Assembly: GCA_963750275.1 (NCBI GenBank)
Contig: CAVVQC010000005.1
Location: forward strand, 756,105 to 820,104
Length of the DNA stretch: 64,000 nucleotides
Origin: an uncultured Chloroflexia bacterium
Lineage (GTDB): Bacteria; Chloroflexota; Chloroflexia; Thermomicrobiales; UBA6265
Direction of reading: 5' to 3'
The notes beneath the pieces were generated by a model, which had not been told where the DNA came from, did not search any database, and worked only from the letters and a program-made list of their open reading frames with translations. This document shows positions 1-64,000 of the stretch, in pieces. The first letter of the stretch is position 1; the number at the start of each line of letters is the position of its first letter. A program made the translations under genes and the position numbers.

Positions 1-1
1 T

Positions 2-996
2 GTCGGCTGGCTACGCAATTGGAACGACGCCCAACCTGCGGATGGGATGCGCGCCGGATTCTATGGACTCGATCTCTACAGCCTCAGCTCCTCGATGCAA
101 TCGGTCATCCATTATCTGGACAAGATCGATCCCGAGGGCGCCCAACGCGCTCGGGCACGCTACGCCTGTTTCGATCATTTCGGTGACGATCCACAGGCCT
201 ACGGCTATCAGACAACTCGGGGCGTAACCGAGCCATGCGAAAACGAGGCAGTCGGCCAATTGGTCGAGTTGCAGCGGCGAGCTGGCGAGCTTGCCAATCG
301 GAATGGCCGTGTGGCCGCGGACGAGTTCTTCTTCGCCGAGCAGAATGCGAGACTAGCCCGCAATGCCGAGGCGTACTACCGGGCCATGTTTTATGGACGC
401 ATCTCCTCCTGGAATCTGCGCGACCGGCATATGGCCGAAACCATCGATGCGCTCGTGCCTCACTTGCGCGGCCGCAATGGTCCGACTGGAGGCCGGATCG
501 TGGTCTGGGCGCACAACTCACATTTGGGCGATGCCCGCGCGACCGAGATGGGCGCTGGTGGGGAGCTCAATGTCGGCCAATTGATGCGTCAACGCTATGG
601 TGACGATGCCTTGCTGATCGGTTTCAGCACCTACACCGGCACCGTGACCGCCGCACACAATTGGGACCAGCCAGCGCAACGCTACCGGGTGCGGCCCGGA
701 CTTCCCGGAAGCTGGGAAGAGCTGTTGCACGAGACCGGCCGCGACCGCTTCGTTTTCGATATTCCCAAGAGCGGCGTCCTCGCCGATGAGCTGCGGGAGC
801 CACGTCTGCAACGCGCCATCGGCGTGATCTACCGGCCCGAGACCGAGCGCTTCAGTCACTACTCCGAAGTGCAACTTCCCGACCAGTTCGATGCGCTGAT
901 TCATCTGGACGTCACATCAGCATTGCATCCTTGGACAAGGATGCGGGCTGGGAAGCTGCAGAGGAATTACCGGACACCTTCCCGTTTGCACTCTGA
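2..996 (+). pseudogene. erythromycin esterase (Ere) family protein; 5' end outside window, C-terminus frameshifted as assembled
   Basis: ORF 47..1060 stays open to the window edge in the same frame (VGWLRNWND..). Ere-family blocks GFYGLDLYS, VVWAHNSHLGD and AIGVIYRPETER are present. After ~nt 930 the family-like C-terminus LHPLDKDAGWEAAEELPDTFPFAL* is readable only in the -1 frame (TGA 994-996). This implies a 1-nt deletion in cc(t)ttgg; the listed tail to 1060 looks like out-of-frame read-through. Confidence 0.75.
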
Positions 997-1125
997 GGAG
1001 AAGTGCCCAAATTCGATCGGCCGCAGCCGTTCGTCACAGCAGGCGTTCTTCTCCCCATGATCGTCCAGAACAAGCCAAGGGCCCATCCCGATTGGGATGA
1101 GCCCTCGATCGTGCCGGTAGCGCAG

Positions 1126-3828: not shown

Positions 3829-6217
3829 TCAGCTCCGCACATACGCTGCCAAATGCGTACCAGTGAGAGTCGATTGGGCGGCAACCAAATCGACAGGGGT
3901 GCCTTCGAAGACGACCCGTCCCCCATCATGACCCGCTCCCGGACCCAGATCGATGATCCAGTCGGCGTGCGCCATGACGGCCTGATGGTGCTCGATCACG
4001 ATCACCGATTTGCCCGATTCGACCAGCCGGTCGAGTAGCGCCAACAGGTTCTCGACATCGGCCAGGTGCAATCCGCTGGTCGGCTCGTCCAGGATGTAGA
4101 CCTCGCCCTTGTCGGCCATGGCGGTCGCTAACTTCAACCGCTGGCGCTCGCCACCGGAAAGGGTCGTCAATGGCTGCCCGAGCCGGATATAACCCAGGCC
4201 GACATCGTTGAGCCGTTGCAGGATCGCGACAGCGGCAGGAATCTTGGTCGGGCCAGTCGAAAAGAATGCGAGCGCTTCCGACACCGGCAGATCGAGCACC
4301 TCGGCAATGTTGAGCTCGCCGAGCCGGTAGTCCAGCACCGCCGCCTGAAACCGCTTGCCGCCGCACTCCTCGCAGACGGTGGTGACCCCTTCCATCATGC
4401 CGAGGTCGGTGTAGATCACCCCCGCGCCGTTGCAAGCGGGACAGGCCCCTTCCGAATTGGCGCTGAAGAGGGCGGGCTTCACGCCGTTGGCTTTGGCGAA
4501 CGCTTTGCGGATCGGCTCGAGCAGGCCGGTATAGGTCGCGGGATTGCTCCGCCGCGAGCCTTTGATCGCCGCTTGATCGACCGCCACCACCCCATCGCGT
4601 TTCGCCACCGAACCATGAATCAATGAGCTCTTGCCCGAACCGGCCACCCCAGTGACCACTACCAGCACCCCGGTGGGGATATCGACATCGACGTTTTGCA
4701 GGTTGTGGGCAGTTGCGCCGCGTATCTCCAGCACTCCCGTGGAATCACGAACGTCCGGCTTGAGCCGCGCCCGGTCATCCAGATGACGCCCGGTCAGGGT
4801 ATCGCTCCTGCGCAGTTCCTCGACCGTGCCCTCGAACACGATCTCGCCCCCTGCGGTTCCTGCCCCAGGCCCGAGATCGATCACATGATCGGCAATCGCG
4901 ATCGCCTCCGGTTTGTGCTCGACCACGAGGATCGTATTTCCCTTGTCGCGTAACTGAATCAACAGATCGTTCATGCGCTGGATATCGTGCGGATGCAGCC
5001 CAATGGTCGGCTCATCGAAGACGTAGGTGACATCAGTGAGGGCCGATCCGAGGTGACGAATCATCTTGGTGCGCTGCGCCTCTCCCCCGGACAAGGTGCC
5101 CGACGGCCGGTCGAGACTGAGATACCCCAACCCGATCTCCACGAACGAATCGAGCAGTTGCTGCAACGCATTCAGCAACGGAGCAACCGTCGGCTCGTCC
5201 AACCCGCGCACCCATTCGGCCAGATCGCTGATCTGCATGGCGCAGACATCGGCGATGTTGCTCCCCCTGATCTTCGAGGACCGCGCCAGCTCGTTCAGCC
5301 GGGTACCGCCGCAATCCGGACAGGCGGTGAAGGTGACCGCCCGCTCCACGAACGCGCGGATGTGCGGTTGCATCGCCTCCTTATCCTTGGAGAGCATCGA
5401 CTTTTGCATTTTGGGGATGATCCCCTCATAGGTGAGGTTGACTCCCTCGACCTTCACCTTCACCGGCTCGTGATAGAGCAGATCCTTGAGCTCCTTCTTC
5501 GTAAATTCGCGAATGGGCTTGTGCGGATCGAAGAATCCGGCGGCCATGAAGATGCGCACGAACCAGCCATCGACCGTGTAGCCAGGGATCTTGAGCGCCC
5601 CCTCGGCCAGTGATTTGGAATCGTCGTACAGCTCGGTGAAATCGAAATCGGTGACCGCTCCGGTGCCTTCGCAGCGCGGGCACATCCCGCCATTGAGCGA
5701 GAAGGTCTCCACCTTGGCTTCCCCCGCACGGCTCCCCTTTTCCACCACGATCGTGCCACTCGCTCTAACAGTGGCGACATTGAAGGAAAAGGCATTGGGG
5801 GAACCGATCTGCGGTTGTCCGAGCCGGCTGAAGAGGATGCGCAACAGCGCGTTGGCATCGGTCGCGGTCCCGACCGTCGAACGGATATTGGCGCCCATCC
5901 GCTCCTGATCGACGATGATCGCGGTGGTCAGACCATCCAGCACATCGACCTCGGGCCGGGAAAGGGTTGGCATGAACCCCTGCACGAACGTGGGATAGGT
6001 CTCGTTGATCATGCGCTGCGATTCGGCAGCGATCGTGTTGAAAACCAGCGAGCTCTTTCCTGATCCGGATACCCCCGTGAAGACCGTTAGCCGACGCTTT
6101 GGGGATATCGACACTGATGTCCTTGAGATTGTTCTCGCGCGCTCCCCGCACGCGGATCATGTCGTGGCTGTCGGCAAGATGGGGTGCGGACGGTCGATTT
6201 TCGATAGTGGCAGTCAT
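3829..6217 (-). pseudogene. UvrA-paralog ABC ATPase (short, UvrA2/DrrC-like excinuclease A family), one frameshift near the 5' end as assembled
   Basis: ORF 3829..6114 has two ABC ATPase modules ([36 protein letters not shown]) and Zn-finger Cys pairs (CPRCEGTG, CPDCGGTR, CPACNGAG, CEECGG). The canonical N-terminus MTATIENRPS..IRVRGARENNLKDISVDIPK lies in ORF 5765..6337 (ATG 6217, AAAGGGAGA RBS). The junction DIPK|RRLTVFTG needs removal of one nt in ccccaaag (6097-6104). At ~795 aa it is too short to contain a full UvrB-binding insert. Confidence 0.85.
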
Positions 6218-7481: not shown

Positions 7482-9627
7482 TTACTCGTCCCCGCCAGAT
7501 ACCGGCAAATTCGCCTCGATACGTGTCCCGGCAGGATCGAGCGGCTCGGCCGCAAATGCGCCCCCAAGCTCCAACGCGCGCTCTCGCATCGATTGCAATC
7601 CAACGCCGGAGATACGGTCGGTCGCAATACCACCCCCATCGTCCTCGATCGTCAACCGGATTCCCGCTGAGTCATGCGCGATACGTATCACGCACCGAGT
7701 TGCATTGGCATGCCGCACGACATTCGTCAACGCCTCGTCGACGATATGGTAAATGGCCACTTCGACTGCTGCCGGCAGGTCACCCAGTTGATCCGGAGCG
7801 TCGAGCGTCACGAGCAAGCGACGCTCCGACATTGGACGCTCCTTCACCAAGATTGACGGTCGAAATCCGATTCTGCAGGGCGCCGATCAACCCCAGATCG
7901 TCGAGCGCTGCCGGCCGCAATCCTTGCACCAACCGGCGAATATCGGCGATGGCGGTGCGCAGCTCCTGTTGCAGCTCGGTTGCCTGTTCCACGGCCGCAT
8001 CCGGATCGCTGCGGATGGTTACCTTCATTGCCCCAGCCTGCAAGGTGAGCGCGGCCAGCTGCGCACCGAGCCCATCGTGCAAATCGCGGCGCAAACGGCG
8101 GCGTTCTTCTTCCCGGGCGGTCACGATCCGCTCGCGCGAAAGCTGCAAGTCATTCGTAAGGCGCACGTTGTGCGCCACCACCCCGATCTGGCGCGCCAGA
8201 TCGTCCAAAAGGCGCAGATCGGTCGAATCGAACTCGCGCGAGCCGGAACGCGGGGAGACGATCAACTCTCCCACCGGTTGCGATTGATAGATCAGCGGGA
8301 TTGGCACCTCGGTGGCGCCAGGTGTTCCGGCTACCGCGACCGGCAGCACCCCCGATTCGAGCGTAATCGCCGCATAGGGGAGGCGCAATGCTTCGGTCAG
8401 GGTGCGCACCGTCGCCCGCAAAGCTTCCACCGGCTGAATCGTTTCGGACAGATCGCCAGCCAGCTTGCGCAGCACCTCATAGGGATCGTCCCGATCGCCA
8501 TAGAAGAGGCGATTGACACCATGCTGTACGCGTGCCCGCATGGGCTGAAAAAGCACTGCGGTCAGGCCCAGTGCGAACAGCGTGAGCACGTTCGATCGAT
8601 CATGCTCGAAGCTCGATCCGATACCAAAAACAATGCCAACATAGGCAGCAATCACGAGCACCGTCATCAGAAGCCAGACCAGCGTACGGCTGATGACGAG
8701 ATCGATATCGAAGAGCCGGTACCGCAGAATCGCGATGGTCAGGCAGATGGGAAAAGCCAGCGAAAAGACCGGCACCGCAATCGTGAAGCCGAGCATAGCC
8801 AGCACTCCTCTGGGAGAGTCGTCGATATTCCGCATCATGGCGTCACCGATCAGAAATGCGGAAAGGGCGAGCACCACGCCAATAGCGCCCAATTTCATCT
8901 GCTGCCGCTGGACCGGGCTCGACTTCCAACGATACCGATAGATGAGCGTGCCAAGACCCAATACCAACAGCAGCAGATCGCTACCTGCCTCCACTACCCG
9001 GCCCAGGCCCTGGCTTGGGTCTCGTCCTGGCGCAGCGATAAACGAGCACACCATGATCATGTAGAACGCCGCCGGAATGGCGACCCATCGCGGCACAAAG
9101 GTGCCGGTCGGAAAGAGCAACGGCAGCAGAAATAGACTGGTAATGTTGAGCGCCGTCAGCATGATGCCAACGGCGAGCCAGACCGGCTCGCCGGCCAACT
9201 GCCGGTGCAGATCAGGGGGATAAACCGCGCCAATACCGGCAACGAAGGTCAGGGAGATGTAGAACGCAAACCAGTCGGTTCCCCGTCGTTTCCAAAGCAG
9301 GATCGCGCTCAGGACCACGGCCACCAGCGACTGGAGGAGCATTCCCCCCGCGACGACGATGGACAATGAACGCTCGGAGATCCCCAGACCCGCAAGATTC
9401 GACCGGAAACCAGCCGCCTCGGTCGCAGACATATCGGTCATGCCGAGAATATCGTCGACCTGCAGCGTGCTGGTCCGGACGAACATTGCCACCGCCAACA
9501 AGAGCACAATGAGCCAGAACATCATCTGCCCGCGACGAACCCGCGCGGGATCGAGTCCCACCAAAGCTCGCTGCCGGAATGATGCGCCGAATTGCATCGG
9601 TTGCGTCCATTCGCCTGTTGTTGGCAC
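7482..9627 (-). pseudogene. membrane sensor histidine kinase (HisKA_3 + HATPase_c), split by one frameshift as assembled
   Basis: ORF 7780..9627 has multiple TM helices, a GAF-like segment and the dimerisation/His block EERRRLRRDLHDGLGAQLAAL. The ATPase domain (LPAAVEVAIYHIVDEALTNVVRHA, IEDDGGGI, GVGLQSMRERA) is in overlapping ORF 7482..7850 in another frame. The shift lies somewhere around 7800-7870. It sits immediately upstream of the response regulator. Confidence 0.85.
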
Positions 9628-13958: not shown

Positions 13959-14219
13959 TCAGGAACCGTGTTCCTTCCACGCCCGATACTGCTCCGGCAT
14001 GCACCGGGCACATGGCCGGTACCCTGCCGCAATCGCCGTCGCCTCATCGGCAAAAAACACCCGATGCGAGGCATAGTGCCCATTCGCCAGATGCCGTAAC
14101 GCCGACGGGCAATCAAGCCGACCGTAGAGTTTCATCGGCTTATAGCCGCCAAGCGTTCCCGGCGTGCTCGAATGATAGGGTTTTCCATCCGCGCCGATCA
14201 GGGTATAGGTCTTGGGCAT
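13959..14219 (-). CDS. Ada metal-binding-domain-like small protein
   Basis: The sequence is MPKTYTLIGADGKPYHSSTPGTLGGYKPMKLYGRLDCPSALRHLANGHYASHRVFFADEATAIAAGYRPCARCMPEQY, with a C..C..C Zn pattern. It overlaps the 3' end of the upstream PQQ ORF by ~80 nt. Confidence 0.65.
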   Translation of the reverse strand: MPKTYTLIGADGKPYHSSTPGTLGGYKPMKLYGRLDCPSALRHLANGHYASHRVFFADEATAIAAGYRPCARCMPEQYRAWKEHGS

Positions 14220-16398
14220 CCTTTGGCACGGGAGGTAGCGGCACTCCTTTCTCGTGCGCGAACGGAGTCGCGCTGCCAGCCGCATCAATACATGGAGCAA
14301 GTTCGATGTCTTGCGACACGACTGGTGTCGCTTCGAGGGTGGCGGTGCCAGGTGAAGCCTCGTATCTGATGATTGCGTCCACATCGCCAGCATCGACCAC
14401 TACGAGCGAACCGTCGACGCTGTAGACGGACATGGCGCCCAGCGTATCTCGCAGCCGCCACCAGTGCACGTCGCCAGTATCGATATCGACCCCAGCAAGA
14501 CTGGAATCGACCAACACCGCAACCACCGTGTTTCCCACGACAGTCAATTGCATGAAGGCCATTGCTTGCACGAAATTGTCCACAGCTCCGATTGGCCGAG
14601 ACTCTCCCGTGAGATCGGTCGAATAGATCGCCTCACCTGTGCGGAGATCGAAGGCGTCCAGCTGGTTGTCAGTGCCAAGAACGAGAATGCGATCGTCCGT
14701 AACTGCCATCGCCCCCGGAGACTGGTCTGCCGATGCACGCCAGAATTCATCTCCTGTAGCGGCTTCGAGTGCAAGCACCAGCGTGTTCGTTCCCATCGCG
14801 CTCTTGCCTCGTCCCGCGACGATCAGAAGGTCGCCGCGGACCTCCATGGCGGTTGTGCCAAGGTCGATCTGCTTCTGCCAAAGCACGGCTCCGCTTTCGG
14901 TATCGACCGCTTGCAGGTAGTCTTCGGTCACGAGATTCGTGAACGCTCGGAACACGCGGCCATCACCAAATGCCGGCTCGTGCCATTCGGTCCCAGCGCC
15001 TGCTGGTCCCACCGTAGTCCAAAGCACTTCTCCTGGCTCAAGAGCAGTTGGCGTTGGCGTGCCATCTCCGAGCTGCCATTTCGGCACGTATTGGGGTAGT
15101 CCGATAAGCGTGCCGTCCTGCGCTGCAATGATGAACATGCTGCCCAGCTTGAGCGCGCCTTGTGGAATGGTATTCACAAACGGTAGCGCCCTGGCAAGTT
15201 CCGAATCAACATTGACGGTCCATTGCGCTCCGTCCGGCATGATTACCGACCCATAGGTCGTTTCCGAGCCAGCATCGCGATACGAGAAGTCTGGCTGGAG
15301 TTGATCCCTCTCCGACATCTCGCCAGTAGCGCCATCGATGAGACAGTAAGCAACCTGATTGTCCGAACCCTGCTCAGTATCTCCAGGCGACGTGGCGATC
15401 CCGAGCAGCGTCTCCTCCGAAAGTTTCCAAACCAGGGATCTCACAGGAGTGGAGGCGCCCCACAACAATGAGCCGCTGCCAGGATCGATCGAGAGTACGT
15501 CGACAATATCGGGAGTTCCATCGACCTCGGGCACATTCGCAATATCAACTGACCGAAACGCTTGCTGGCAAATGCCCGATGCAGGATCACTACCGGCCTG
15601 TGGTGTTGCTTCAACCATCACCGACCGTGCGCTCGTGTTCCCTCCTTGGTCGGAATTAGAGACAACGAAAGTGCCTTCGACAACCTGCACTTTGGTTGGT
15701 CCTGAAAGGTGTGGCGGAACTTTCCAGAGATACGCACCGTCGTCACTATCGACTGCCACCACGTCCCCGCGATCAGTAATCGCTGCGAGCACGCCGTCTT
15801 GCAAGGCAAGGCGGCCGTCGAGATAAACAAGCACCGGCGAACGGCTCGAATCGTCCACATACGAATCGAGGTCGACCGTCCATCTTGGCGACTGACTTAT
15901 GGGGTCGAGCGCAGTGACCACATTGTTGGTGTCCAGCATCAGGACTTCGTCTCCGCCACTGACCATATCAACCGGAAGGGCAGCGAGGGGTTCCCGCCAT
16001 CGTTCAACACCGGTGGTTCGATCAAGCGCGATGAGAAGGTTGGAGTCCCCGCTGGGAGATTCGACGCTCATTGCAAAGACCAACATCTCTGATGTGACGC
16101 TGCTAACGCCCATCCAGCCGTCAAGTTCTGTCCGCCACAACTCGTTCCCGGTTGCGGCATCGATGGCTTGGACGATTGGGAAGCCCTCCTGTCGATAGAT
16201 CACCCAAAAGACTTCTTGTTCCCCATCGGAAGAAATCAGCATCTGGCCAGTCGTGCCTTCCGGCGCATCGATTTGCCAGGCAATGGCCGAGGATTGAGCA
16301 GTTGGCTCTGGTGACGACTCCACCGTGCCGAAACTGGCAGCCGGAATGGCGCTCGGTTCCGGCGTAGAGCGTGAATTGAGCAGGCCACCAAAGATCAC
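14140..16398 (-). CDS. PQQ-like beta-propeller repeat protein (probably the extracytoplasmic part of the upstream anti-sigma/TM protein)
   Basis: The 752-aa ORF has repeated G..LW...(D/L)..(V/A) blade patterns (ATGNELWRTEL, TTGVERWREPL, SGAVLWQKQI, ATGDEFWRASA, DTGDVHWWRL). As assembled it starts at a GTG overlapping the upstream stop (GTGA) and lacks its own signal peptide. Confidence 0.75.
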   Translation of the reverse strand: MIFGGLLNSRSTPEPSAIPAASFGTVESSPEPTAQSSAIAWQIDAPEGTTGQMLISSDGEQEVFWVIYRQEGFPIVQAIDAATGNELWRTELDGWMGVSSVTSEMLVFAMSVESPSGDSNLLIALDRTTGVERWREPLAALPVDMVSGGDEVLMLDTNNVVTALDPISQSPRWTVDLDSYVDDSSRSPVLVYLDGRLALQDGVLAAITDRGDVVAVDSDDGAYLWKVPPHLSGPTKVQVVEGTFVVSNSDQGGNTSARSVMVEATPQAGSDPASGICQQAFRSVDIANVPEVDGTPDIVDVLSIDPGSGSLLWGASTPVRSLVWKLSEETLLGIATSPGDTEQGSDNQVAYCLIDGATGEMSERDQLQPDFSYRDAGSETTYGSVIMPDGAQWTVNVDSELARALPFVNTIPQGALKLGSMFIIAAQDGTLIGLPQYVPKWQLGDGTPTPTALEPGEVLWTTVGPAGAGTEWHEPAFGDGRVFRAFTNLVTEDYLQAVDTESGAVLWQKQIDLGTTAMEVRGDLLIVAGRGKSAMGTNTLVLALEAATGDEFWRASADQSPGAMAVTDDRILVLGTDNQLDAFDLRTGEAIYSTDLTGESRPIGAVDNFVQAMAFMQLTVVGNTVVAVLVDSSLAGVDIDTGDVHWWRLRDTLGAMSVYSVDGSLVVVDAGDVDAIIRYEASPGTATLEATPVVSQDIELAPCIDAAGSATPFAHEKGVPLPPVPKDAQDLYPDRRGWKTLSFEHAGNAWRL

Positions 16399-16742
16399 AC
16401 CCCCCCCCCGATTAGCAGGAAGAATGCGGCAACAATCGCAGCCAGACGGGACTGGGACAATCCGCGAACCTTAGGAGCGACGGGTGTTGGTCGTGCCATG
16501 ACCTGCGGCCGAGACACCGCAGCCACCCGAAGTCCCTCGGCTGCGCTCGGGACGATGGAAAGCGGAAACAAGGAGCGTTCGAGTTGCGCGATGAACTCTT
16601 CTGACGGAAACGCGTGTTGCCGGTCAAACAGGGACTGCACAGTTTCGGCTGTGCCTAGCAACGGTTCCGAGCCGTTGAGCGCGATATCTCGCTCCCCGTC
16701 CAGCGCCCGGTCGAAACGGACGGCCATATCGTGTTCGGTCAT
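16395..16742 (-). CDS. putative anti-sigma factor N-terminal/TM segment (truncated in the middle of its TM helix as assembled)
   Basis: The 115-aa ORF overlaps the ECF sigma gene stop by 4 nt. It has a soluble N-part followed by RLAAIVAAFFLLIGGGV*. No zinc-anti-sigma HxxxCxxC motif is present. Confidence 0.55.
   Translation of the reverse strand: MTEHDMAVRFDRALDGERDIALNGSEPLLGTAETVQSLFDRQHAFPSEEFIAQLERSLFPLSIVPSAAEGLRVAAVSRPQVMARPTPVAPKVRGLSQSRLAAIVAAFFLLIGGGV
16400..16409 (-). repeat. homopolymer tract C10 (G10 on the coding strand) at the junction of two ORFs
   Basis: Read directly as cac-cccccccccc-gatt. G10 gives ..LLIGGGV* followed by GTG-ATC... G11 would fuse the ORFs to ..AAIVAAFFLLIGGGGVIFGGLLNSRS.., a full-length TM helix. 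Confidence 0.9.
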
Positions 16743-17283
16743 GAGGTCACCTGTTTCGGATCGAGCAAAATGCGGAGCTGCTGGTACGCGCGGAATTGCA
16801 ATGCGCGCACCGCGCCATGCGAGCGGCCGAGCGCTTCGGCAATTTCCGGACCGGACAATCCGGCCAACCGCAGTTCCACCACTTCGCGTTGTTCGGAAGT
16901 CAGCCCATCGAGCAACCGACGCAGATCGAGCGCGTCTTCACGCTGCAAGAGATCATCATCCAGTCCGGCGCGGACCACGTCGGAGTCGACCAGCGCAACC
17001 GTTGGTCGCGCTCGATGCAGATCGGTCACCACATTGCGGGCAATCGCGTAAAGCCACGCTCGAAACGTACAGGCGCGATATCCCGGCAACCCTGCCAGCG
17101 CCTGCACGAAGACCTGGCTTGTCGCGTCCTCCGCCAGTTCGCGCGTCCCAGCCGCTGGTAGCAGAAGCCAAAGATCGGTCCCACATAGCGGCGGTAGAGC
17201 GGCGCGAACGCGGCCGGATCGCGCTGCGCTTGCGCGGCCAGTAGCTCGTCGTCCGGTTCGATTCGCCCGCGTTCCTCGGTCAT
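16739..17283 (-). pseudogene. ECF (sigma-70 family group 4) RNA polymerase sigma factor, one frameshift as assembled
   Basis: The N-part MTEERGRIEPDDELLAAQAQRDPAAFAPLYRRYVGPIFGFCYQRLG is in ORF 17026..17292. Region 2/4 follows in ORF 16739..17107: ELAEDATSQVFVQALAGL.., FRAWLYAIARNVV, LTSEQREVVELRLAGLSGPEIAEALGRSHGAVRALQFRA. The junction needs +1 nt near 17140-17146. Confidence 0.85.
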
Positions 17284-17447
17284 CGGCCTCATGCGCTCCG
17301 CTGCGCCCGTCGGCTCATCGCTCCCAGCAACTACCCCGGGATTGGAAAGGAAACGGAAAAGATGCCCGAAGTGTTACGCACCGGGGTGCGACATTTCCGG
17401 CTATCGTTGCCCAAGACTGAACGATCGATAGACAAAAGGGGCGTTCG

Positions 17448-21042: not shown

Positions 21043-21960
21043 CTACCCTTTCACACCTCCTGCCATCAAGCCACTGACCAGCGCCCGCTGAACAATGGCG
21101 AAGCCGATAATGATCGGAATGATGCTAATGATTCCGCTGGCGCTCAACACGCCCCACGGCATTTGGAATTCACCCACCATCAACTGCAATCCAACCGGCC
21201 AGGTGCGGGCGCCATTGGCGGTTGTGAGCAGCAGCGCCCAGACATATTCATTCCAGGCGCCGATAGCGATGAACACAGTAGTTGCGGCAATGCCCTGCCG
21301 GGCCAACGGCAGCACGATGCGGATGAGCGCCCCCAACCGGGTCGAGCCGTCGACACGTGAAGCCTCTTCCAGATCGGGCGGGATGCCATCGAAAAATCCC
21401 TTCAACATCCAGACACACAACGGCAGCAGGAAGGTCGTATAGGTCAGGGCCAGACCGAAGTGGCTGTCGAACAGTCCAAGATTACGGAGCATGATGAACA
21501 AGGGAATCAGCAGCAAGGTGAACGGAAACATCCGGATGACCAGATAAAAGATCATCAACCCTCCGCGACCCCGGAAGCGATAGCGCGAGATGCTGTAGGC
21601 AGCGATCGTCCCGATAACGACCGACATCAGCACCGTCATACCGGTCACGATGGCGCTATTTTTCAGGAGTCGCGGGTACCCTGATCGCTGCCAGAGGGTG
21701 ACGTAATTGTCGAAGTTGAGCGAATGCGGCAGCCAGGTGAAATCGCGCGAGACGATCTCGTTCTCGGTCTTGAACGAGGTCAGTACCGTCCAGACGATCG
21801 GCCCGATCGCGAACAGCACCACGATGATCACCACGACTGCCGCCATGACATCGAAGAAGTGCCGTGTCCGCCGCAATGAGGCAAACGGCAACCAGGATCT
21901 GGCCGGCTCTGCCGCTGCCACATGGGAAAAGGGACCACTTTGCTCTGCGACCACGCTCAT
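21043..21960 (-). CDS. carbohydrate ABC transporter permease (MalG-like)
   Basis: It has 6 TM helices and the EAA-loop block EEASRVDGSTRLGALIRIVLPLA. Confidence 0.85.
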   Translation of the reverse strand: MSVVAEQSGPFSHVAAAEPARSWLPFASLRRTRHFFDVMAAVVVIIVVLFAIGPIVWTVLTSFKTENEIVSRDFTWLPHSLNFDNYVTLWQRSGYPRLLKNSAIVTGMTVLMSVVIGTIAAYSISRYRFRGRGGLMIFYLVIRMFPFTLLLIPLFIMLRNLGLFDSHFGLALTYTTFLLPLCVWMLKGFFDGIPPDLEEASRVDGSTRLGALIRIVLPLARQGIAATTVFIAIGAWNEYVWALLLTTANGARTWPVGLQLMVGEFQMPWGVLSASGIISIIPIIIGFAIVQRALVSGLMAGGVKG

Positions 21961-21965
21961 CGGGC

Positions 21966-23746: not shown

Positions 23747-23912
23747 GCCACCCCTCGGAGTCAGCTACCAAATCATCTGATTGTCGGACCAATTCCTTCA
23801 GATGGTAGTCAGCGGGTCACGAATTGTCAATTCATGCACCATTTTGTATCTAGCCCACATGGTTGTCACGAGTGAGCCTCCACACAAGAACGCTTCTGGC
23901 GATATGCGCACG

Positions 23913-41649: not shown

Positions 41650-41708
41650 GAAACCCACCGTTGCGAAAACTAACTGAATGTGGTCATCCGAACCGTCTCG
41701 TCAGATGT

Positions 41709-41930
41709 TTACGCACAGCTATGGTGGTCACAGGACGTGACGCTGACGACAGCAATTTCGTCGTCGAATGTTGCGCCTCCTGCGGAGGGACGGCCGCTCA
41801 GGCGGTCCTGCAGGAGACGTTGCAGATCCAGCACAAGCGGCGGCATGCCAGCTGGCTGGTCTTTAGGGGAGAGAGGCTCTCGCGCTTCTCGACCGGGGGT
41901 TGCGCCACCTTGGGAAGACGTAGACATCAT
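41709..41930 (-). CDS. lanA1: class III lanthipeptide precursor peptide (copy 1)
   Basis: 73 aa: MMSTSSQGGATPGREAREPLSPKDQPAGMPPLVLDLQRLLQDRLSGRPSAGGATFDDEIAVVSVTSCDHHSCA. An AAAGGAG RBS is present, with an LDLQ-type leader motif and a Ser/Thr/Cys C-terminal core. It is co-directional with and 147 nt upstream of lanKC. Confidence 0.8.
   Translation of the reverse strand: MMSTSSQGGATPGREAREPLSPKDQPAGMPPLVLDLQRLLQDRLSGRPSAGGATFDDEIAVVSVTSCDHHSCA
41731..41927 (-). repeat. tandem duplication unit A (lanA1 coding DNA)
   Basis: It aligns base-for-base with 42175-42371 at an offset of 444 nt. By eye, the ~135 nt encoding the leader differ at one position, while the ~60 nt encoding the core carry about a dozen differences. 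Confidence 0.85.
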
Positions 41931-42130
41931 CGGCTCCTTTGATTTGGGCGGCGTTGCGCAATGTGAAGGATGCTGATCGGCTTCATCGGTGCGAATACTC
42001 TATCGACACCGAGAGGGTCAAATGCTCAAAAAATCGAGTTCAACTAATGCAGAGGGACGTGGCTGCCCATTGGTTCGAAGCCGATCAACTCAGGCGGTAG
42101 AGGGGTTATCCATCGATCGGATTTTGGAGA

Positions 42131-42161
42131 CTGTCAGGCCGAATTGATTCGGTTACTGACA
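42131..42161 (-). terminator. stem-loop overlapping the lanA2 stop codon (attenuator/partial terminator candidate)
   Basis: The mRNA reads TGTCAG-TAA-CCGAAT-ca-ATTCGG-c-CTGACA: two 6-bp stems whose 5' arm is the last two codons plus the stop. No U-tract follows. Confidence 0.4.
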
Positions 42162-42371
42162 ACTGTGATGAGAGCAGGACGTGACGCTGACGACGGCGAC
42201 TTCGTCACCAAATGTAGTGCCTCCTGCCGAGGGACGGCCGCTCAGGCGGTCCTGCAGGAGACGTTGCAGATCCAGCACAAGCGGCGGTATGCCAGCTGGC
42301 TGGTCTTTAGGGGAGAGAGGCTCTCGCGCTTCTCGACCGGGGGTTGCGCCACCTTGGGAAGACGTAGACAT
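42153..42371 (-). CDS. lanA2: class III lanthipeptide precursor peptide (copy 2)
   Basis: 72 aa from ATG 42371 (GGAAGGAG RBS 7 nt upstream): MSTSSQGGATPGREAREPLSPKDQPAGIPPLVLDLQRLLQDRLSGRPSAGGTTFGDEVAVVSVTSCSHHSCQ. The ORF-track start at 42407 adds 12 unlikely residues. Confidence 0.8.
   Translation of the reverse strand: MSTSSQGGATPGREAREPLSPKDQPAGIPPLVLDLQRLLQDRLSGRPSAGGTTFGDEVAVVSVTSCSHHSCQ
42175..42371 (-). repeat. tandem duplication unit B (lanA2 coding DNA)
   Basis: Partner of 41731-41927; see that entry. Confidence 0.85.
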
Positions 42372-42411
42372 TATTGACTCCTTCCAGGATAGAGTGGTGG
42401 GCTTCAATCAC

Positions 42412-48114: not shown

Positions 48115-49042
48115 ATGACCGTTATCACCCCAGAGCTCACCCAATCCCAATCCCCGCCACCGGTGCTCAAACAGAGTCACCGCGGCGAGAAGATCGGCTC
48201 TGCGCTCTTTCTTGCCCCCGCGGTTGCCTTTCTCCTGCTCACCTCGGTCTATCCGCTGATCTATTCCCTCTGGCTCAGCTTCCACTCCTGGAACATGACC
48301 ATCCCGAACAGCCAACCAGTCTGGATCGGAACCCGCAACTACGAACGCCTCTGGGACGATCCCGATTTCTGGAACGCCATCAAGGTCACGCTCATCTTCG
48401 TCACCGTCGCGGTTACGGTCGAGTTCATCTTCGGGATGGGACTTGCTTTGCTCGCGACCAGCCGCATCCGGGCCATGGGCTGGATCCGCACCATCATGCT
48501 CTTTCCGCTCATGCTCGCCCCGGTCGGTTGCCGGGGTGCTCTGGCGCACCCTCTTCCAATCGAGCTACGGCGTCATCAATTGGGCGATCGGACTGGTCGG
48601 CATCCCTCCACAAGAGTGGCTCGGCTCCCCCACCCAGGCGTTACCGGCGGTCATTACGGTCGAGGTCTGGCAAAACCTCCCGGTCGTCACCTTCATCCTG
48701 GCGGCGGGTATCCAGTCACTTCCGGTCGATCTCTACAAGGCCGCGCAAGTCGACGGCGCCTCCTCCTGGCAAATCTTCCGTCGCATCACCCTGCCACTCC
48801 TGAAACCGGTCATCCTGGTGCTTCTGCTGCTGCGCATCATGGACGCCTTCAAGGTCTTCGACATCGTTTTCACCATGACCTACGGCGGACCCGGGCAAAC
48901 CACTGAGCTCATGTCGATGCTCATCTACAAGACCGGTTTGCGCTTCTTCCAGATCGGACAGGCCAGCGCCATGTCCTGGGTCTTCCTGATCGCGATCTTC
49001 ATCATGTCGCTCTTCTTCATCCGGCGATTGGACAAGGAATGA
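48115..49042 (+). pseudogene. ABC transporter permease (MalF-like), one frameshift as assembled
   Basis: ORF 48115..48906 carries TM1-3 (..IMLFPLMLAPV). ORF 48443..49042 carries the rest (VAGVLWRTLFQSSYGVINW.., EAA loop YKAAQVDGASSWQIFRRITLPLL). The junction requires deleting one G in gtcGgttgcc (~48526). Confidence 0.85.
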
Positions 49043-49929
49043 GCGCCACGACCATCACCCCGGGGCAACCTGCCACCAGCGCAGGACCAAACTATCACCG
49101 TCGCCGGCGGATCGGCGCGATCCTGCTCTATCTGCTGACCATCGTCATCATGATCATCATTGCCTTTCCGATGTACTGGCTGATCACCACGTCGTTCAAG
49201 GTCCCGGCCGATACCACGGCAAACCCGCCCATCATCTTTCCGACCCGCTTCACCCTCGACAACTACGTCAATGCCTTCAAGACCGCCGGGGTCCAACGCG
49301 CGTTCGCCAATTCGATCATCGTGGCCATCGCGTCGACCTTCTTCACGACCCTGCTCGGCTCGATGGCCGCCTACGCACTGGCCAAGTCGTACCTCGCCTA
49401 TACGATCCGGCGCGGGTTGATGATCTGGATCCTGATCACCCGCATCTTCCCGCCAGTCACCACCGCCATTCCCTATTACGTGATCGTGCGCCGGTTGCAC
49501 CTGGGCGATACCCACATCGCACTGATCATCACCTACGTCGCTTACGGTCTTCCCTTCGTGATCTGGTTGATGCTCGGTTTCTTCCAGGACATGCCTTCCG
49601 AGATCGAAAAAGCCGCCATTGTCGACGGTTGCTCCTTCTGGCAGCGCTTCCGCCGCATCGTCCTGCCGCTGGCGCTGCCGGGGCTGGCGGTGACCTCGAT
49701 CTTTGCCTTCATCTATTCATGGAACGAGCTCCTCTATGCATCGATGCTCACCTCGTTCAATGCCAAGACGATTCCGGTTGTGGTCTCCGGGTTCATCTCC
49801 GATCAATTCCTGCGCTGGGGCGAAATGACCGCCATCGGCACATTGATGGTCATTCCCGTGCTGATCTTCGCGGCTGGCGCACAACGCTATCTCGTGCGCG
49901 GGCTCACCTTCGGCGCGGTCAAGGGGTAA
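49039..49929 (+). CDS. ABC transporter permease (MalG-like)
   Basis: It has 6 TM helices and the EAA loop EKAAIVDGCSFWQRFRRIVLPLA. It overlaps the previous gene by 4 nt. Confidence 0.85.
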   Translation: MSATTITPGQPATSAGPNYHRRRRIGAILLYLLTIVIMIIIAFPMYWLITTSFKVPADTTANPPIIFPTRFTLDNYVNAFKTAGVQRAFANSIIVAIASTFFTTLLGSMAAYALAKSYLAYTIRRGLMIWILITRIFPPVTTAIPYYVIVRRLHLGDTHIALIITYVAYGLPFVIWLMLGFFQDMPSEIEKAAIVDGCSFWQRFRRIVLPLALPGLAVTSIFAFIYSWNELLYASMLTSFNAKTIPVVVSGFISDQFLRWGEMTAIGTLMVIPVLIFAAGAQRYLVRGLTFGAVKG

Positions 49930-49937
49930 GAGAAACG

Positions 49938-51032
49938 ATGGCGAATATCCGCTTCGATCGGATCAGCAAGCGCTTTGGCAATCAACAGGCAGCGGCCGTC
50001 ATCGACCTCAACCTGGAGGTCCACGACAAAGAGCTACTCACCCTGGTCGGCCCTTCTGGCTGCGGCAAATCGACCACCCTGAACATGCTGGCCGGGCTGG
50101 AAGATCCGTCCGAAGGCCTGATCTACATCGACGACCGCGTCGTGAACGATGTTCCTCCCGGCGCGCGCGATATCGCCATGGTCTTCCAGAGCTACGCCCT
50201 CTATCCCCACATGACCGTCCGCCAGAACATTGGCTTCGGACTCGAAGTGCGGGGTGTGAAAAAGGCCGAGATTGCCCGCCGGGTGGACGACGCTGCCCAA
50301 CTCCTCGACATCGGACCGCTGCTCGACCGTCGCCCCAAAGAACTTTCCGGTGGACAGCGCCAACGGGTCGCCCTCGGCCGCGCCATCACCCGTGATCCCA
50401 AGGTCTTCCTGCTCGACGAACCTCTGAGTAACCTTGACGCCCAGCTCCGCACCCAGATGCGCGCCGAACTACGTCTCCTCTTCCGCCGCATCGAAGGCAC
50501 GGTCGTCTACGTCACCCACGACCAGGCCGAAGCCATGACGCTGAGCGACCGGCTGGTGGTCATGCGCAACGGATTGGTGCAGCAAGTTGGGACGCCACTC
50601 GAGGTTTACAGCAATCCCGTAAACATCTTCGTTGGCAAATTCCTTGGCAGCCCGAGCATGAATTTTATCGATGCGACCATCGAATCGGACCAGGGTGATG
50701 CGGTGCTGCGCACGGCGGGTGGAGCCGTGCCGGTGACACGGAGCATGGCCGGGAGCGACGAGCTAACTATCGGTCAACCATTGGTCATCGGAGTACGTCC
50801 CGAGGACATCGTGATTTCCCCGGGTCATGGCGATGGATTGGACGCGACCGTCGAAGTCATCGAATCGATGGGCGCATCCAATGTGGTCTACGTCCGGTTG
50901 GCCGGCACACGCGTCGCGGTGACCACCGGTCCAACCTTTACCTCCAGCTACGATGCGCCCGTCAGCCTGAGCCTCGACATGGAAAAAGTGCACCTCTTCG
51001 ACCCGGTTTCGGAACAAGCGCTTACACGCTAG
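49938..51032 (+). CDS. ABC transporter ATP-binding protein (MalK/UgpC-like)
   Basis: The sequence begins MANIRFDRISKRFG. Walker A is GPSGCGKST, the signature is LSGGQRQRVALGRA and Walker B is VFLLDEPLSNLD. A MalK-type C-terminal regulatory domain is present. Confidence 0.9.
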   Translation: MANIRFDRISKRFGNQQAAAVIDLNLEVHDKELLTLVGPSGCGKSTTLNMLAGLEDPSEGLIYIDDRVVNDVPPGARDIAMVFQSYALYPHMTVRQNIGFGLEVRGVKKAEIARRVDDAAQLLDIGPLLDRRPKELSGGQRQRVALGRAITRDPKVFLLDEPLSNLDAQLRTQMRAELRLLFRRIEGTVVYVTHDQAEAMTLSDRLVVMRNGLVQQVGTPLEVYSNPVNIFVGKFLGSPSMNFIDATIESDQGDAVLRTAGGAVPVTRSMAGSDELTIGQPLVIGVRPEDIVISPGHGDGLDATVEVIESMGASNVVYVRLAGTRVAVTTGPTFTSSYDAPVSLSLDMEKVHLFDPVSEQALTR

Positions 51033-58051: not shown

Positions 58052-58908
58052 TCAAACGAAGAGCGGTTCCATCGCCTGCGAACGCACCAGGCCATCCATC
58101 TCCACATCGCTTGGGCGCGTGCCGAATCGCTCGGCGGCGTCGATGACCTTTGGCAGCAAGTTCACATCGCTGGCGGTGTTGAGGAAGACCTGCTCGTTCC
58201 CCAATACCCACTGCGCAGCCAGGTCGATCGAATCCTGATCCACCAGCGGCTTGTACCAGGTAGTCGTCGTCTGCGGATCATCGCCCCACGGGGCACGGGT
58301 GATCCCCTTGATCGTCTGCACTGCCACCTTCCGCTCGGCGCAGACCCGCGACAGCTCATCGAAATCGGCCGCGTACTCCGGGTTCTGCATGAGAATGTAG
58401 CTATACGGAAGCAGCACCGAATCGAAATCGAACCGCTCCAGCGAGCGCGATGCATTCGTGCAATCGGCACGCCATGCCCGGTCACGCCAATAAAGCGCAC
58501 CAATCCCTCGTCCCGCGCACGCACCGCCGCTTCCAACGCGCCGCCCGGTCCCATCGCCGTTTGCCACTCGTCCTCTTCGACCAGATTGTGCAGTTGAATC
58601 AGATCGACCCGATCGGTCCGCAATCGCTCTAGTGATCGCTGGATCTCGTCATACGCCGGACCGGCGCTTCGCTCGCCCGTCTTCGTCGCTAGAAAGAACC
58701 GATCTCGATGCTCCGCCATCCAGGGACCAAGTCGCAATTCCGACTCACCATAGCTGGCTGCCGTGTCGATATGGTTGATTCCCCAACCGAGAATCTGCTC
58801 CATCGTCTGGTCTGCCACGTCCTGTGACACATCTCCGAAAGCTGCTGCCCCGAAAATCACCCGTGTGCTCTCGTGCCCGGTCCGGCCAAATGGTTGTGTT
58901 GCGATCAT
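58052..58908 (-). pseudogene. aldo/keto reductase, one frameshift as assembled
   Basis: ORF 58162..58908 reads [41 protein letters not shown] 58052..58567 continues in another frame: [24 protein letters not shown]...QWVLGNEQV. The junction is near 58465-58475. Confidence 0.8.
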
Positions 58909-62116: not shown

Positions 62117-62167
62117 AACCCAGAACCGCCCGCCCGCACATTCCCAAACCAGCTCCACCTCATCCTT

Positions 62168-62329: not shown

Positions 62330-63241
62330 CTACGGCACGTCGATCTCCTCGAACATCCCCTCGGCCGCATGTGGCAGCATGTCCGGGCTGTTCGGATCGG
62401 TCACGAAGCAGGTGATGTAGTTGTAGCCAGAGGTGAAATCGACCACCGCCCAGATCTTCACACCGGCGGAAACCGTCGTGATGCCCGAGGGGCTGAACTG
62501 GATCTCGTCCAGACCCGGCAAACCGGAATCGGGCGCCGGCGTAGCGCCGTCTTCCATCATCAACAACTGCATGAACTGGTCGTTATCCAGCGGCACCGGG
62601 CTCACCAGCGCCGCCACGAAATGCGGCTGATCGGTCTTGTTATAGAACTGGACCAGATTCGGACCGGCCACCACATCGCCCGCTACCGCGAAGTCGTATC
62701 CGGTCTCGTTGCTCGTAGCGGTGATGGTTACGGTCGGGGTGATCTCTCGCAGCGTGTCCGGCATCGCGCCGGTCACCTGGATCTCGGTCATCGGGATGGC
62801 CGAACCCGGGTCGTCCGCCCAGACCACCCAATTGCCCGGAAGAAGATCGATCACGGCCTGTCCCACCGTGCCCGGCGCGCCCATGGCGCCTCCGGCGATC
62901 GTGGTGTGATACAGCCACGATAAGCTGGCCCCGGTTTCGTCCTCCGCCGCGAAGGCCGCGGTCACATCATCGAAGGTCATACCATCGGGAATGAGGAAGA
63001 ACGAAGCCGCCGAGGGCTCGCTCGTCTCGATCGAGGCATTGACCAGATAGCGGCCCGCCGGGATCGACGACGGCAGATCGAAACCCGCATCGGTCACGGT
63101 GATATCGAACTCGCTAAGCCCCAGCCCGGATGCCGTCACCAGAGGCGGTGCCGCCTCGGGCGTGGCATCCTGCGCCAGCGACGGCGTCACCAGCGTGAGC
63201 GCCAGCAGCAGCGCAACAAGAAGACCAAACCATCGTTTCAT
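62330..63241 (-). CDS. Sec-exported two-domain protein with C-terminal cupredoxin-like ligand pattern (paralog of 9678..10538)
   Basis: Signal peptide: MKRWFGLLVALLLALTLVTPSLAQ. Blocks shared with the paralog are ITVTD..IPAGRY, VIDLLPGNW, QPHFVAAL, and C-x10-H-x3-M in YITCFVTDPNSPDMLPHAAEGMFEEIDV. Confidence 0.6.
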   Translation of the reverse strand: MKRWFGLLVALLLALTLVTPSLAQDATPEAAPPLVTASGLGLSEFDITVTDAGFDLPSSIPAGRYLVNASIETSEPSAASFFLIPDGMTFDDVTAAFAAEDETGASLSWLYHTTIAGGAMGAPGTVGQAVIDLLPGNWVVWADDPGSAIPMTEIQVTGAMPDTLREITPTVTITATSNETGYDFAVAGDVVAGPNLVQFYNKTDQPHFVAALVSPVPLDNDQFMQLLMMEDGATPAPDSGLPGLDEIQFSPSGITTVSAGVKIWAVVDFTSGYNYITCFVTDPNSPDMLPHAAEGMFEEIDVP

Positions 63242-63427
63242 CGCTGTCCTCCCTGTTCAGTTTCCACCCGCCGATCCATTGCGACAGGATCACCCTCCGG
63301 CCCCCCACGCACCCTCGCGCGGCATCGGCTATGCACTTCTCGGTGATGGCACCATCATGCGCCTGTTGGGTCAAAAACGGAAGTGCCCTTGTCCGCGAAC
63401 TGATGCATCCGGCCGTATGATTGCCCA

Positions 63428-64000
63428 ATGACGCACCCAATCCGTTTCCACGTCCTCATCATTCCCACCACCGATTGGCCCGAGGTCCTGCGCCGCGCCC
63501 AATGGCTGGAAACCCTCGGCCTCGACGCGGTCATGCTCCCGGATCATCTGGTCGACTGGACCAATCCCCCCGCTCCCTGGTACGACGCATGGACCGCCCT
63601 TGCTGCCCTGGCCCAGGCCACCAGCACCATCCGGCTCGGCACCGCCGTGACCCAGATTCCGTTGCGTAACCCGGCCATGCTCGCCCGGCAAGTGCTCACC
63701 CTCGACCAGATCTCCCATGGCCGCATCGAGCTCGGGCTCGGCACCGGCCTGACCATCGATCCGTCCTACAAGATGGGCGGCTTCCCGAACTGGTCCAACG
63801 CCGAACGCGCCGACCGCTTCGGCGAATATCTCGAGCTCGTCGCCCAGCTCCTTTCGCAGGAAACCACCACCTTCGCCGGCCGCTACTACCAGGCCGATGG
63901 CGCCGTCATGAACCCGCGTCCCATCCAGCAACCCCGTCCGCCCATCATGGTGGCCGCCCTTGGCCCGAAGATGATGCGCCACACCGTCCGCCACGCCGAC
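63428..64000 (+). CDS. LLM-class (F420-dependent-like) oxidoreductase, 3' end outside window
   Basis: My own translation from ATG 63428: MTHPIRFHVLIIPTTDWPEVLRRAQWLETLGLDAVMLPDHLVDW..IRLGTAVTQIPLRNPAMLARQVLTLDQISHGRIELGLGTG... It is open to the window end and is not in the ORF track because no stop is reached. Confidence 0.75.
   Translation, partial: MTHPIRFHVLIIPTTDWPEVLRRAQWLETLGLDAVMLPDHLVDWTNPPAPWYDAWTALAALAQATSTIRLGTAVTQIPLRNPAMLARQVLTLDQISHGRIELGLGTGLTIDPSYKMGGFPNWSNAERADRFGEYLELVAQLLSQETTTFAGRYYQADGAVMNPRPIQQPRPPIMVAALGPKMMRHTVRHAD

Follow-up and report, generated by a model that had tools for sequence, protein, structure and literature searches.

Single-base frame shifts in eleven genes of a 64-kb Thermomicrobiales MAG sequence, probably residual long-read consensus errors

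Interrupted genes in the window

The window, meaning the whole 64-kb stretch of DNA that was analysed, contains roughly 50–55 genes. Frameshift-aware alignment to full-length homologues revealed 11 of these (about a fifth to a quarter) to carry 19–20 single-base indels, 11 insertions and 9 deletions, which corresponds to about 31 detectable events in every 100 kb. An earlier note on this DNA had claimed at least 18 single-nucleotide indels of both kinds in at least 12 genes, such that ORF calling would fragment about a quarter of the genes. The indel count, the presence of both signs and the fragmented share agreed with our results. The breakage of genes was also real, although the gene count was 11 and not 12; the earlier note itself listed 11 items, and its anti-sigma and PQQ ORFs form one gene in the homologue P0465.

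All 11 items were aligned with a protein-to-DNA aligner permitting +1/−1 shifts, using full-length homologues as the reference, and DNA-level alignment to intact orthologous genes was added for three genes (SDR, ABC permease and AKR). The homologues were full-length single polypeptides, which upheld the reading of the overlapping ORFs as single genes broken by +1/−1 shifts. This comparison, which the earlier note had proposed for each junction, found the fragments as separate genes in relatives for none of the items. The sites are listed below, with the sign given for the window relative to the intact frame (+1, extra base; −1, missing base).

925–935 (~933), + strand: Ere-family (PRTase/erythromycin-esterase-family) gene; −1, CATCC-TTGG, near the 3′-end
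6095–6103 (~6100), − strand: uvrA-like ABC ATPase gene (3829–6217); +1, extra base in CCCCAAA, codon ~40
7826–7850, − strand: histidine kinase gene (7482–9597); +1 between HisKA_3 and HATPase_c
16400–16409, − strand: anti-sigma/TM/PQQ-propeller gene (14140–16742); −1, G10 run on the gene strand, with G11 or G8 in frame
17144–17152 (~17148), − strand: ECF sigma factor gene (16739–17292); −1, CTGGGAC in region 2, frame restored by GGGG
29498–29507, − strand: SDR/3-oxoacyl-ACP-reductase-like gene (28866–29626); −1
30305–30313 (30310), + strand: LAL/LuxR-family regulator gene (29872–32266), site 1 of 7; +1
30626–30634 (30632), + strand: LAL regulator, site 2; +1, CTGCCCATTG; CCC, frame restored by CC
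30720–30737 (30735), + strand: LAL regulator, site 3; +1, just before the conserved 'LFRRLAVF' motif
30757–30774 (30772), + strand: LAL regulator, site 4; +1, between 'FHGG' and 'SLEAIEAIS'
30795–30842, + strand: LAL regulator, sites 5 and 6; +1 at ~30800 and +1 at ~30840, or alternatively a single −1 at ~30807–30855
31408–31419 (31414), + strand: LAL regulator, site 7; +1, before the C-terminal TPR/GerE part
32432–32434, + strand: Tat-signal alpha/beta hydrolase gene (32429–33479); +1 right after the ATG, ATG-T-ACC
40780–40800 (40795 and 40784), − strand: lanKC, class III lanthionine synthetase (38785–41561), events 1 and 2; two −1, about 11 nt apart
40634–40642 (40638), − strand: lanKC, event 3; −1, back to the original frame before 'FLAEEFVRGDH'
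40105–40138 (~40120), − strand: lanKC, event 4; −1 between the kinase and LanC-like domains
48523–48527 (48526), + strand: first permease gene (48115–49042) of a sugar ABC transporter operon; +1, GGTCGGTT versus GGTT-GTT
58446–58449 (58448), − strand: aldo/keto reductase (AKR) gene (58052–58908); −1, CATC-GCGC, where the orthologues have Leu (CTG)

The site positions in the earlier note were all at or near these, with three of them off by 15–40 nt (histidine kinase, placed at 7850; hydrolase, 32470; AKR, 58470).

The Ere-family gene runs into the window at position 1, and the stop that truly ends it lies at 994–996. The orthologues P0043, P0044 and P0046 terminate in '...SALHPLDKDSGWEAPNELPDTFPFEV', a tail that is present in the window in the next frame after ~933; the called Ere protein (P0042, 695 aa) is 22 aa too long and ends in a wrong 43-residue tail. 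The N-terminus of the uvrA-like product changes to the next frame between 'ADSHDMIRVRGARENNLKDISVDIPK' and 'RRLTVFTGVSGSGKSS', and the shift at ~6100 was absent from all 80 homologous genes of other species. Synteny with the Chloroflexota loci found through uvrA did not extend beyond the uvrA gene itself. In the histidine kinase, Pfam put HisKA_3 and HATPase_c in different frames, the extra base being positioned at 7833 by the orthologues P0057–P0059 (680–704 aa) and at 7848 by P0064. The Sigma70_r2 match of the ECF sigma factor began only at profile position 18, and a paralogue on L005 required a −1 at 17150.

DNA alignment of the SDR gene with an intact orthologue on L003, which encodes 253 aa, showed that the window lacks one base at 29503. 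The adh_short profile was divided between frames (1–36 and 33–186), and among the full-length proteins listed for the 81-member 90% cluster the lengths were 243–277 aa (most 253 aa), compared to 207 aa for the fragment P0552. The ABC permease gene had one extra base relative to two independent relatives, L003 and L004, at the DNA level; its identity to the orthologue was 93% before the site and 97% after it, and the operon was otherwise intact. The AKR site was backed both by DNA alignment to L003 and by protein alignment to the 285-aa orthologues of L003 and L006. In the alpha/beta hydrolase, the frame that contains 'SRRRAIRWIALGLAAAAL' has no ATG, GTG or TTG before 32628. The ATG at 32628 was rejected as the true start because it would leave a start-less Tat signal peptide upstream in the same frame, and because the orthologues (P0440–P0446) are 350 aa; these start with 'MTRQPF..' and align from residue 2–4 at 32435–32441. 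Following repair the hydrolase is 349 aa.

Two genes were hit repeatedly. Frameshift-aware alignment of the LAL regulator to eight homologues, among them P0284 (791 aa, 64% identity), placed its sites, and Pfam located AAA_16, TPR and GerE in different frames. All seven full-length homologues set site 2 at 30632; the eighth, P0283, begins downstream. At sites 5 and 6 the closest homologues (P0284 and P0283) favoured two insertions and more distant ones modelled one deletion, giving 6–7 sites in this gene, with stops in the other two frames confining the shift or shifts to 30795–30842. In lanKC, events 1 and 2 were agreed upon by six homologues (P0162–P0168, 907–925 aa), and a three-frame reading found 'LDVVIK' and 'ESRPHIEVGR...FREGGH' in successive frames. 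For event 4, Pfam assigned Pkinase and LANC_like to different frames, with which tblastn and DP alignment concurred. The in-frame stops at 40722–40784 were considered as nonsense mutations and rejected, as the homologous residues were all found in the other two frames.

The G10 run was the sole run longer than 7 nt in the 64-kb window, and it splits the anti-sigma/PQQ gene into ORFs of 115 and 752 aa. The 769-aa homologue P0465 aligned from residue 1 across this junction with a single −1 at 16405, and the stop following the run bisects a predicted transmembrane helix. P0465 has no Gly stretch encoded by a G run at the junction, so the tract is not conserved in this homologue. A GTGA overlap at 16395–16398 was considered as real translational coupling of two genes; this was rejected, since the homologue is encoded as a single polypeptide and the stop falls within the helix.

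Controls, sequence context and the public record

The same frameshift-aware aligner gave no events when 15 intact genes were compared with relatives, and 77 of the 80 uvrA-like genes of other species were event-free, the other three having only events that resembled alignment noise. The frame shifts are not an aligner artefact. One-base repairs restored a full-length ORF in every gene, with a single terminal stop and no internal stop. The repaired genes had 82–95% amino acid identity to their orthologues on both sides of each indel, compared to 75–94% for the 15 intact neighbours; as they match their orthologues as well as the intact neighbours do, there was no sign of decay. All 19–20 lesions were of exactly one base, and nonsense mutations, larger indels and IS insertions were not found. 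No lesion was common to relatives: the orthologues in L002–L006 (~80–88% nucleotide identity) and in the protein collection were intact. Pfam searches of the remaining ORFs and of the 'non-coding' gaps from codon-usage segmentation revealed no further frameshifts. The long genes elsewhere were open, as had been claimed: the 992-aa MCO and 803-aa VWA ORFs were uninterrupted and the 19.7–23.7 kb transporter operon was full length compared with relatives. The YCII, PNP/DoxX and ABM genes appear to be separate intact genes.

The lesions occurred anywhere within a gene, including codon 2 of the secreted hydrolase, the P-loop region of the uvrA-like gene, the sigma/anti-sigma pair and the mid-operon permease. 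Ten of the 20 sites were within 4 nt of a run of at least 3 bases, against 7.9 expected (P=0.23), and the rest were not, consistent with the earlier description of many, but not all, sites as lying in short homopolymers. Replication slippage concentrates in the longest mononucleotide runs. The events did not fall there, with the exception of G10: none of the 94 runs of 5–7 nt was affected, and the context of the other sites was indistinguishable from that of random positions. Motif comparison and manual reading found no common sequence motif or inserted base among the 20 sites. The sites were strongly clustered, with seven in about 1.1–1.2 kb of the LAL regulator (P<5e-5, uniform placement) and four in 0.7 kb of lanKC. 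Eight consecutive insertions (LAL regulator and hydrolase) were followed by four consecutive deletions (lanKC; runs test, P=0.055).

The window is part of an 824,348-bp contig of a Thermomicrobiales-like MAG, and the public protein collection carries the fragments as separate products of this contig. These include the PQQ ORF (P0432), the SDR fragment (P0552), the sigma fragment (P0567) and a 280-aa LAL fragment called downstream of site 7 (P0282). Exact look-up of seven repaired protein sequences from five genes (abh, ABC permease, AKR, two for SDR and two for sigma, as alternative repairs or starts) gave no match in a collection of 15 billion proteins. Searching with intact neighbouring sequence identified three Logan contigs of ERR11523665 (L001, L087 and L088) that come from this strain or one nearly identical to it; over 4.7 kb they had 99.77–99.90% identity to the window and no indels, and they stopped short of every site, ending 146 nt before the abh site and 367 nt before the ABC permease site. 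Among relatives, contig_16042 of ERZ25039539 (921 kb, a Flye-style name) had a +1 frameshift of its own in a DUF8034 gene, whereas the window's copy of that gene is intact. The related GCA_023957115.1 contig showed no frameshift in 10 shared genes, and 12 MFD Nanopore MAG loci had none in about 29 kb of uvrA-like genes; if the source contig came from an MFD-like pipeline, it would be worse than is typical.

Origin of the frame shifts

We consider it highly probable that the indels are not mutations of the organism but consensus errors left over in a metagenome assembled from long reads, most likely from Nanopore reads alone. The Microflora Danica long-read MAGs were produced by a Nanopore-only pipeline, with Flye and one round of Medaka, and their contigs are named contig_N (PMC12313526). 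A MAG at ENA/NCBI with a contig of 824 kb would be in keeping with such a pipeline, which points to a technical cause and suggests Nanopore as the platform of the source contig. For R10.4 Nanopore consensus, Sereika et al. (2022, PMC9262707) report that runs of at least 10 remain problematic, and that bins with less than about 40-fold coverage have to be polished with short reads because indels fragment gene calls. In places with thin or mixed read support, the consensus would have retained random one-base insertions and deletions, and the single long homopolymer, G10, would have been miscounted. Each error would shift the frame, such that gene callers would break a real gene into at least two ORFs or add a false tail.

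The window resembles the known 'IDEEL' problem of long-read indel errors (PMC9262707; Kastor paper, PMC12007338) in having one-base consensus indels, genes divided among neighbouring ORFs of different frame, proteins that fall short of their database relatives in length and a very long MAG contig in which the sole 10-nt homopolymer is miscounted. It differs in that most of the sites are outside homopolymers, and in the strong clustering with same-sign runs. Additionally, a polished assembly would be expected to have fewer than about 31 indels per 100 kb, and the density here implies low or uneven read support. Strong clustering is the pattern expected from local coverage or strain-mixture problems, and the dense clusters in the LAL regulator and lanKC may reflect either of these. 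The same-sign runs count against an artefact, and can be accounted for only by assuming near-single-read support with a locally correlated type of error.

That the frameshifts are instead real and recent pseudogenising mutations, either across a lineage with relaxed selection or, more narrowly, in a decaying lanthipeptide cluster (LAL regulator and lanKC), seems unlikely. The indels are part of the deposited sequence and are reflected in the publicly called proteins, and the assembled bases were contradicted neither by the protein look-up nor by the Logan contigs, none of which spans a site. The genes with seven and four lesions are 6–9 kb apart and could belong to one biosynthetic cluster, the real decay of which, if it were unused, would look alike; the 38–42 kb stretch with lanKC has a lower G+C content (0.57), like an acquired island. 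However, 19–20 one-base indels without a nonsense mutation, a larger indel or an IS insertion argue against decay. On the rough assumption of some ten substitutions for each indel, of which about 4% create a stop, several stops would be expected in the LAL regulator and lanKC alone. Conservation was undiminished on either side of the lesions, no lesion was common to any relative and the sites avoided the 94 runs of 5–7 nt in which slippage events would be expected to accumulate. A single gene with seven insertions but not one deletion is contrary to the deletion bias usual in bacteria, and housekeeping-type genes in intact operons were also affected. The frameshift pseudogenes of Mycobacterium leprae and Salmonella Typhi are comparable in that about a fifth of the genes are disrupted, some of them repeatedly. 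Unlike those, the genes in the window are free of nonsense mutations, larger deletions and IS insertions and have kept their conservation, and their lesions are neither found in relatives nor concentrated in slippage-prone runs.

A genuine slippage-prone switch at G10 (16400–16409), with the other sites being errors, would toggle the fusion of the anti-sigma N-terminal/TM part with the PQQ-propeller by phase variation or transcriptional slippage. The tract is coding, lies at a domain junction and is unique in its length in the 64 kb, and its out-of-frame state generates the GTGA stop/start overlap; in phase-variable contingency loci too, a homopolymeric tract sets the reading frame, as this one coding 10-nt G run does here. 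We nonetheless give the switch very little probability. The homologue P0465 is one polypeptide without the Gly stretch, the two products are probably non-functional as the stop halves the predicted transmembrane helix, and Nanopore consensus is reported to fail at runs of at least 10 (PMC9262707). In contrast to contingency loci, only one of the 20 sites is of this kind, the tract is missing from the homologue and the off state cuts a transmembrane helix. Programmed ribosomal frameshifting, or similar recoding for expression, has a negligible chance of being the cause, and nothing but the frame changes themselves speaks for it. The 20 sites have no common motif, several genes would need 4–7 successive shifts of the same sign and the orthologues of all 11 genes are single-frame; with the shifts missing from every orthologue that was compared, programmed shifting is effectively refuted already.

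It is quite improbable that some of the lesions are real, which would mean either a freshly inactivated class III lanthipeptide cluster (6–7 insertions in the LAL-type regulator and 4 deletions in lanKC) in a soil Thermomicrobiales, or a true G10 switch that couples and uncouples an ECF anti-sigma and a periplasmic PQQ-propeller sensor domain. Real indels would represent an unusual burst of gene inactivation, and nothing here favours them over residual consensus error.

Consequences for annotation

The practical outcome is a warning for annotation, as about a fifth of the genes are mis-called in this stretch of a public MAG. The mis-calls comprise a split kinase, sigma/anti-sigma pair, regulator and lanthionine synthetase, an esterase with a false tail and a secreted hydrolase called without its signal peptide, and the fragments are already separate entries in large protein collections. 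The same caution applies to pseudogene counts, gene-content comparisons and protein-length statistics. Genome mining of this organism, for example for the class III lanthipeptide cluster, needs frame repair or re-polishing first.

Location of the single-base indels

Full-length homologues were aligned to the window with a purpose-written protein-to-DNA aligner that allowed +1 and −1 shifts. This confirmed that one-base indels break genes in the window, as an earlier note had claimed (at least 18 single-nucleotide indels interrupting at least 12 genes), an observation that was correct and carefully made. The sites are listed below in window positions, +1 being an extra base and −1 a missing base relative to the intact frame; all came from the frameshift-aware alignment except that of the hydrolase, which was placed from orthologue starts and frame reading.

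933, −1, Ere-family gene (1–996, + strand, extending upstream of the window)
6100, +1, uvrA-like gene (3829–6217, − strand)
7833, +1, histidine kinase gene
16405, −1, anti-sigma/PQQ gene, within the C10/G10 run at 16400–16409
~17150, −1, ECF sigma gene
29503–29505, −1, SDR gene (DNA alignment: base missing at 29503)
30310, 30632, 30735, 30772, 30800, 30840 and 31414, all +1, LAL regulator gene (LuxR family, 29872–32266, + strand)
32429, +1, alpha/beta hydrolase gene, extra base directly after the ATG at this position (ATG-T-ACC)
40795, 40784, 40638 and ~40120, all −1, lanKC (class III lanthionine synthetase gene)
48526–48529, +1, ABC permease gene (DNA alignment to two independent relatives: extra base at 48526)
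58448, −1, AKR gene (also by DNA alignment)

The SDR, ABC permease and AKR genes each showed one gap when aligned as DNA to intact orthologous genes. Pfam analysis placed successive pieces of single-domain or fixed-architecture proteins in neighbouring ORFs in different frames: HisKA_3 and HATPase_c of the kinase, adh_short positions 1–36 and 33–186 of the SDR, AAA_16, TPR and GerE of the LAL regulator, RamC_N, Pkinase and LANC_like of lanKC, BPD_transp_1 of the permease, and also the AKR; region 2 of the ECF sigma factor was truncated. The hydrolase orthologues (350 aa) start with MTRQPF, and the extra base was placed after the ATG at 32429 because their alignments begin at residue 2, 3 or 4, at 32435–32441, and the frame of the Tat-type signal peptide has its first start codon only at 32628. 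The LAL sites 30800 and 30840 could alternatively be a single −1, although the two closest homologues favoured two +1 events. No frameshift events were found in 15 intact control genes aligned with relatives, nor in 77 of the 80 uvrA-like genes compared in other species, the remaining three showing only events that resembled alignment noise.

The number of disrupted genes was 11 rather than 12, since a 769-aa homologue (P0465) continues across the junction of the anti-sigma and PQQ ORFs, which are one gene; the assembled stop splits a hydrophobic helix of this protein between LAAIVAAFFLLIGGGV and IFGGLL. Three of the earlier coordinates, those for the hydrolase, kinase and AKR, were displaced by 15–40 nt. 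Two in-frame stops separate the RamC_N part of lanKC from its kinase part; they were rejected as nonsense mutations because the missing residues (LDVVIK and ESRPHIEVGR...FREGGH) were readable in the other two frames.

Repaired genes, public fragments and gene context

A one-base repair of the hydrolase, ABC permease, AKR, SDR, sigma, uvrA-like and anti-sigma/PQQ genes gave full-length proteins with a terminal stop only, and no stop lay on the path that the alignments followed through the LAL, lanKC, kinase and anti-sigma/PQQ genes. Repaired lengths compared with those of relatives were 253 and 253 aa (SDR), 285 and 285 aa (AKR), 308 and 308 aa (permease), 349 and 350 aa (hydrolase) and about 795 and 791 aa (LAL). 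Identity to orthologues was 82–95% for repaired genes and 75–94% for intact neighbours, the same range. The claim that ORF calling is misled was also supported. In a public collection, fragments from this contig stand as proteins in their own right: the Ere product with a false tail (P0042, 695 aa compared with about 673 in relatives), the LAL C-terminus (P0282, 280 aa), the PQQ ORF (P0432, 752 aa), an SDR fragment (P0552, 207 aa, from an 81-member cluster in which the full-length members listed are mostly 253 aa) and a sigma fragment (P0567, 122 aa). None of seven repaired protein sequences tried had an exact match there.

The Ere esterase corresponds to the C-terminal half of an about 670-aa fusion of a phosphoribosyltransferase (PF00156) and an erythromycin-esterase-family protein (PF05139) that is common in Thermomicrobiales MAGs. 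The uvrA-like ABC ATPase shared 76–81% protein identity with genes of Actinomycetota, Myxococcota, Acidobacteriota and Chloroflexota; this cross-phylum conservation was unusually uniform and the flanking genes were not syntenic. The ECF sigma and anti-sigma genes form one indel-bearing pair with both genes affected, and the sigma stop and anti-sigma start overlap as ATGA (16739–16742, − strand), the usual coupled arrangement. A class III lanthipeptide cluster (38785–42407, − strand) comprised lanKC and two tandem precursor-like ORFs.

41712–41927, − strand, lanthipeptide precursor-like ORF
42156–42371, − strand, lanthipeptide precursor-like ORF, 92% identical to the other

Each had the leader motif PPLVLDLQ and, at the C-terminus, SVTSC(D/S)HHSC. 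The nearest lanKC homologues had only 56% identity (60% in frameshift-aware alignment), and G+C fell to 0.57 across 38–42 kb.

Comparator DNA

As exact matches of its intact proteins show, the 64-kb window (about 60% G+C) comes from a contig of 824,348 bp deposited at NCBI and ENA; close relatives of it carry the annotation Thermomicrobiales bacterium MAG. Comparator DNA came from GCA_023957115.1 (JAMLHN010000014; loci L002 and L003, about 76–85% nucleotide identity to the window), GCA_020432215.1 (L004) and the 921-kb contig_16042 of ENA assembly ERZ25039539 (L005 and L006, about 82–88%). Additionally, run ERR11523665 yielded three short Logan contigs (L001, L087 and L088) that matched 21935–23981, 32578–33953 and 48893–50201 at 99.77–99.90% identity, with seven substitutions and no indels over 4,732 bp of exclusively intact regions, so this run contains the window's strain or one nearly identical to it. 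Two of these contigs failed to reach an indel site, by 146 nt and 367 nt.

Origin of the indels

Assembly error is very probably the cause of the indels, a technical origin being indicated by several independent features. The lesions were exclusively single-base indels (11 insertions and 9 deletions); neither nonsense codons nor larger indels nor insertion elements were present. Natural slippage is expected to prefer the longest runs. The window has 94 runs of 5–7 nt, and none was affected; C10/G10 was its sole run above 7 nt. Ten of the 20 sites lay no more than 4 nt from a run of at least three bases (7.9 expected, P = 0.23), and the sites other than C10/G10 resembled random positions. Indels struck at any relative position within a gene, and they also hit genes of otherwise intact, highly conserved operons. 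They were strongly clustered: the LAL gene had seven within 1.1 kb and lanKC four within 0.7 kb (probability of seven within 1.2 kb under uniform placement below 5e-5). Such clusters would fit stretches with thin or mixed read support. Real recent pseudogenisation is an improbable, minor alternative: the LAL regulator and lanKC may share one biosynthetic cluster whose decay is conceivable, but counting against it are the total lack of stops and the restriction of the LAL lesions to insertions.

The indel signs were ordered: eight +1 followed one another (30310–32432; seven in LAL and the eighth in the adjoining gene), then four −1 in lanKC (40120–40795). A runs test on all 20 signs gave P = 0.055; same-sign stretches would, speculatively, fit near-single-read support with a locally correlated error type.

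Published work supports a technical origin: gene calls are commonly fragmented by Nanopore consensus indels, polishing is needed for bins below about 40-fold coverage and runs of at least 10 bases are still problematic (PMC9262707). ENA holds many Nanopore-only MAGs made with Flye and one Medaka round, with contig_N names (PMC12313526). Several such MAGs occurred among the loci collected for this analysis, and we infer that the window's own contig was made by such a pipeline. In the related contig_16042, which has a Flye-style name, a DUF8034 gene was split by a separate +1 frameshift (L005, ~1530) and called as two products, 458 and 206 aa long; the window copy (25427–27370) is an intact 647-aa ORF. 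The GCA_023957115.1 contig had no frameshifts across ten shared genes. The indels thus most likely represent no biological feature, and their value is as an annotation warning for this genome.
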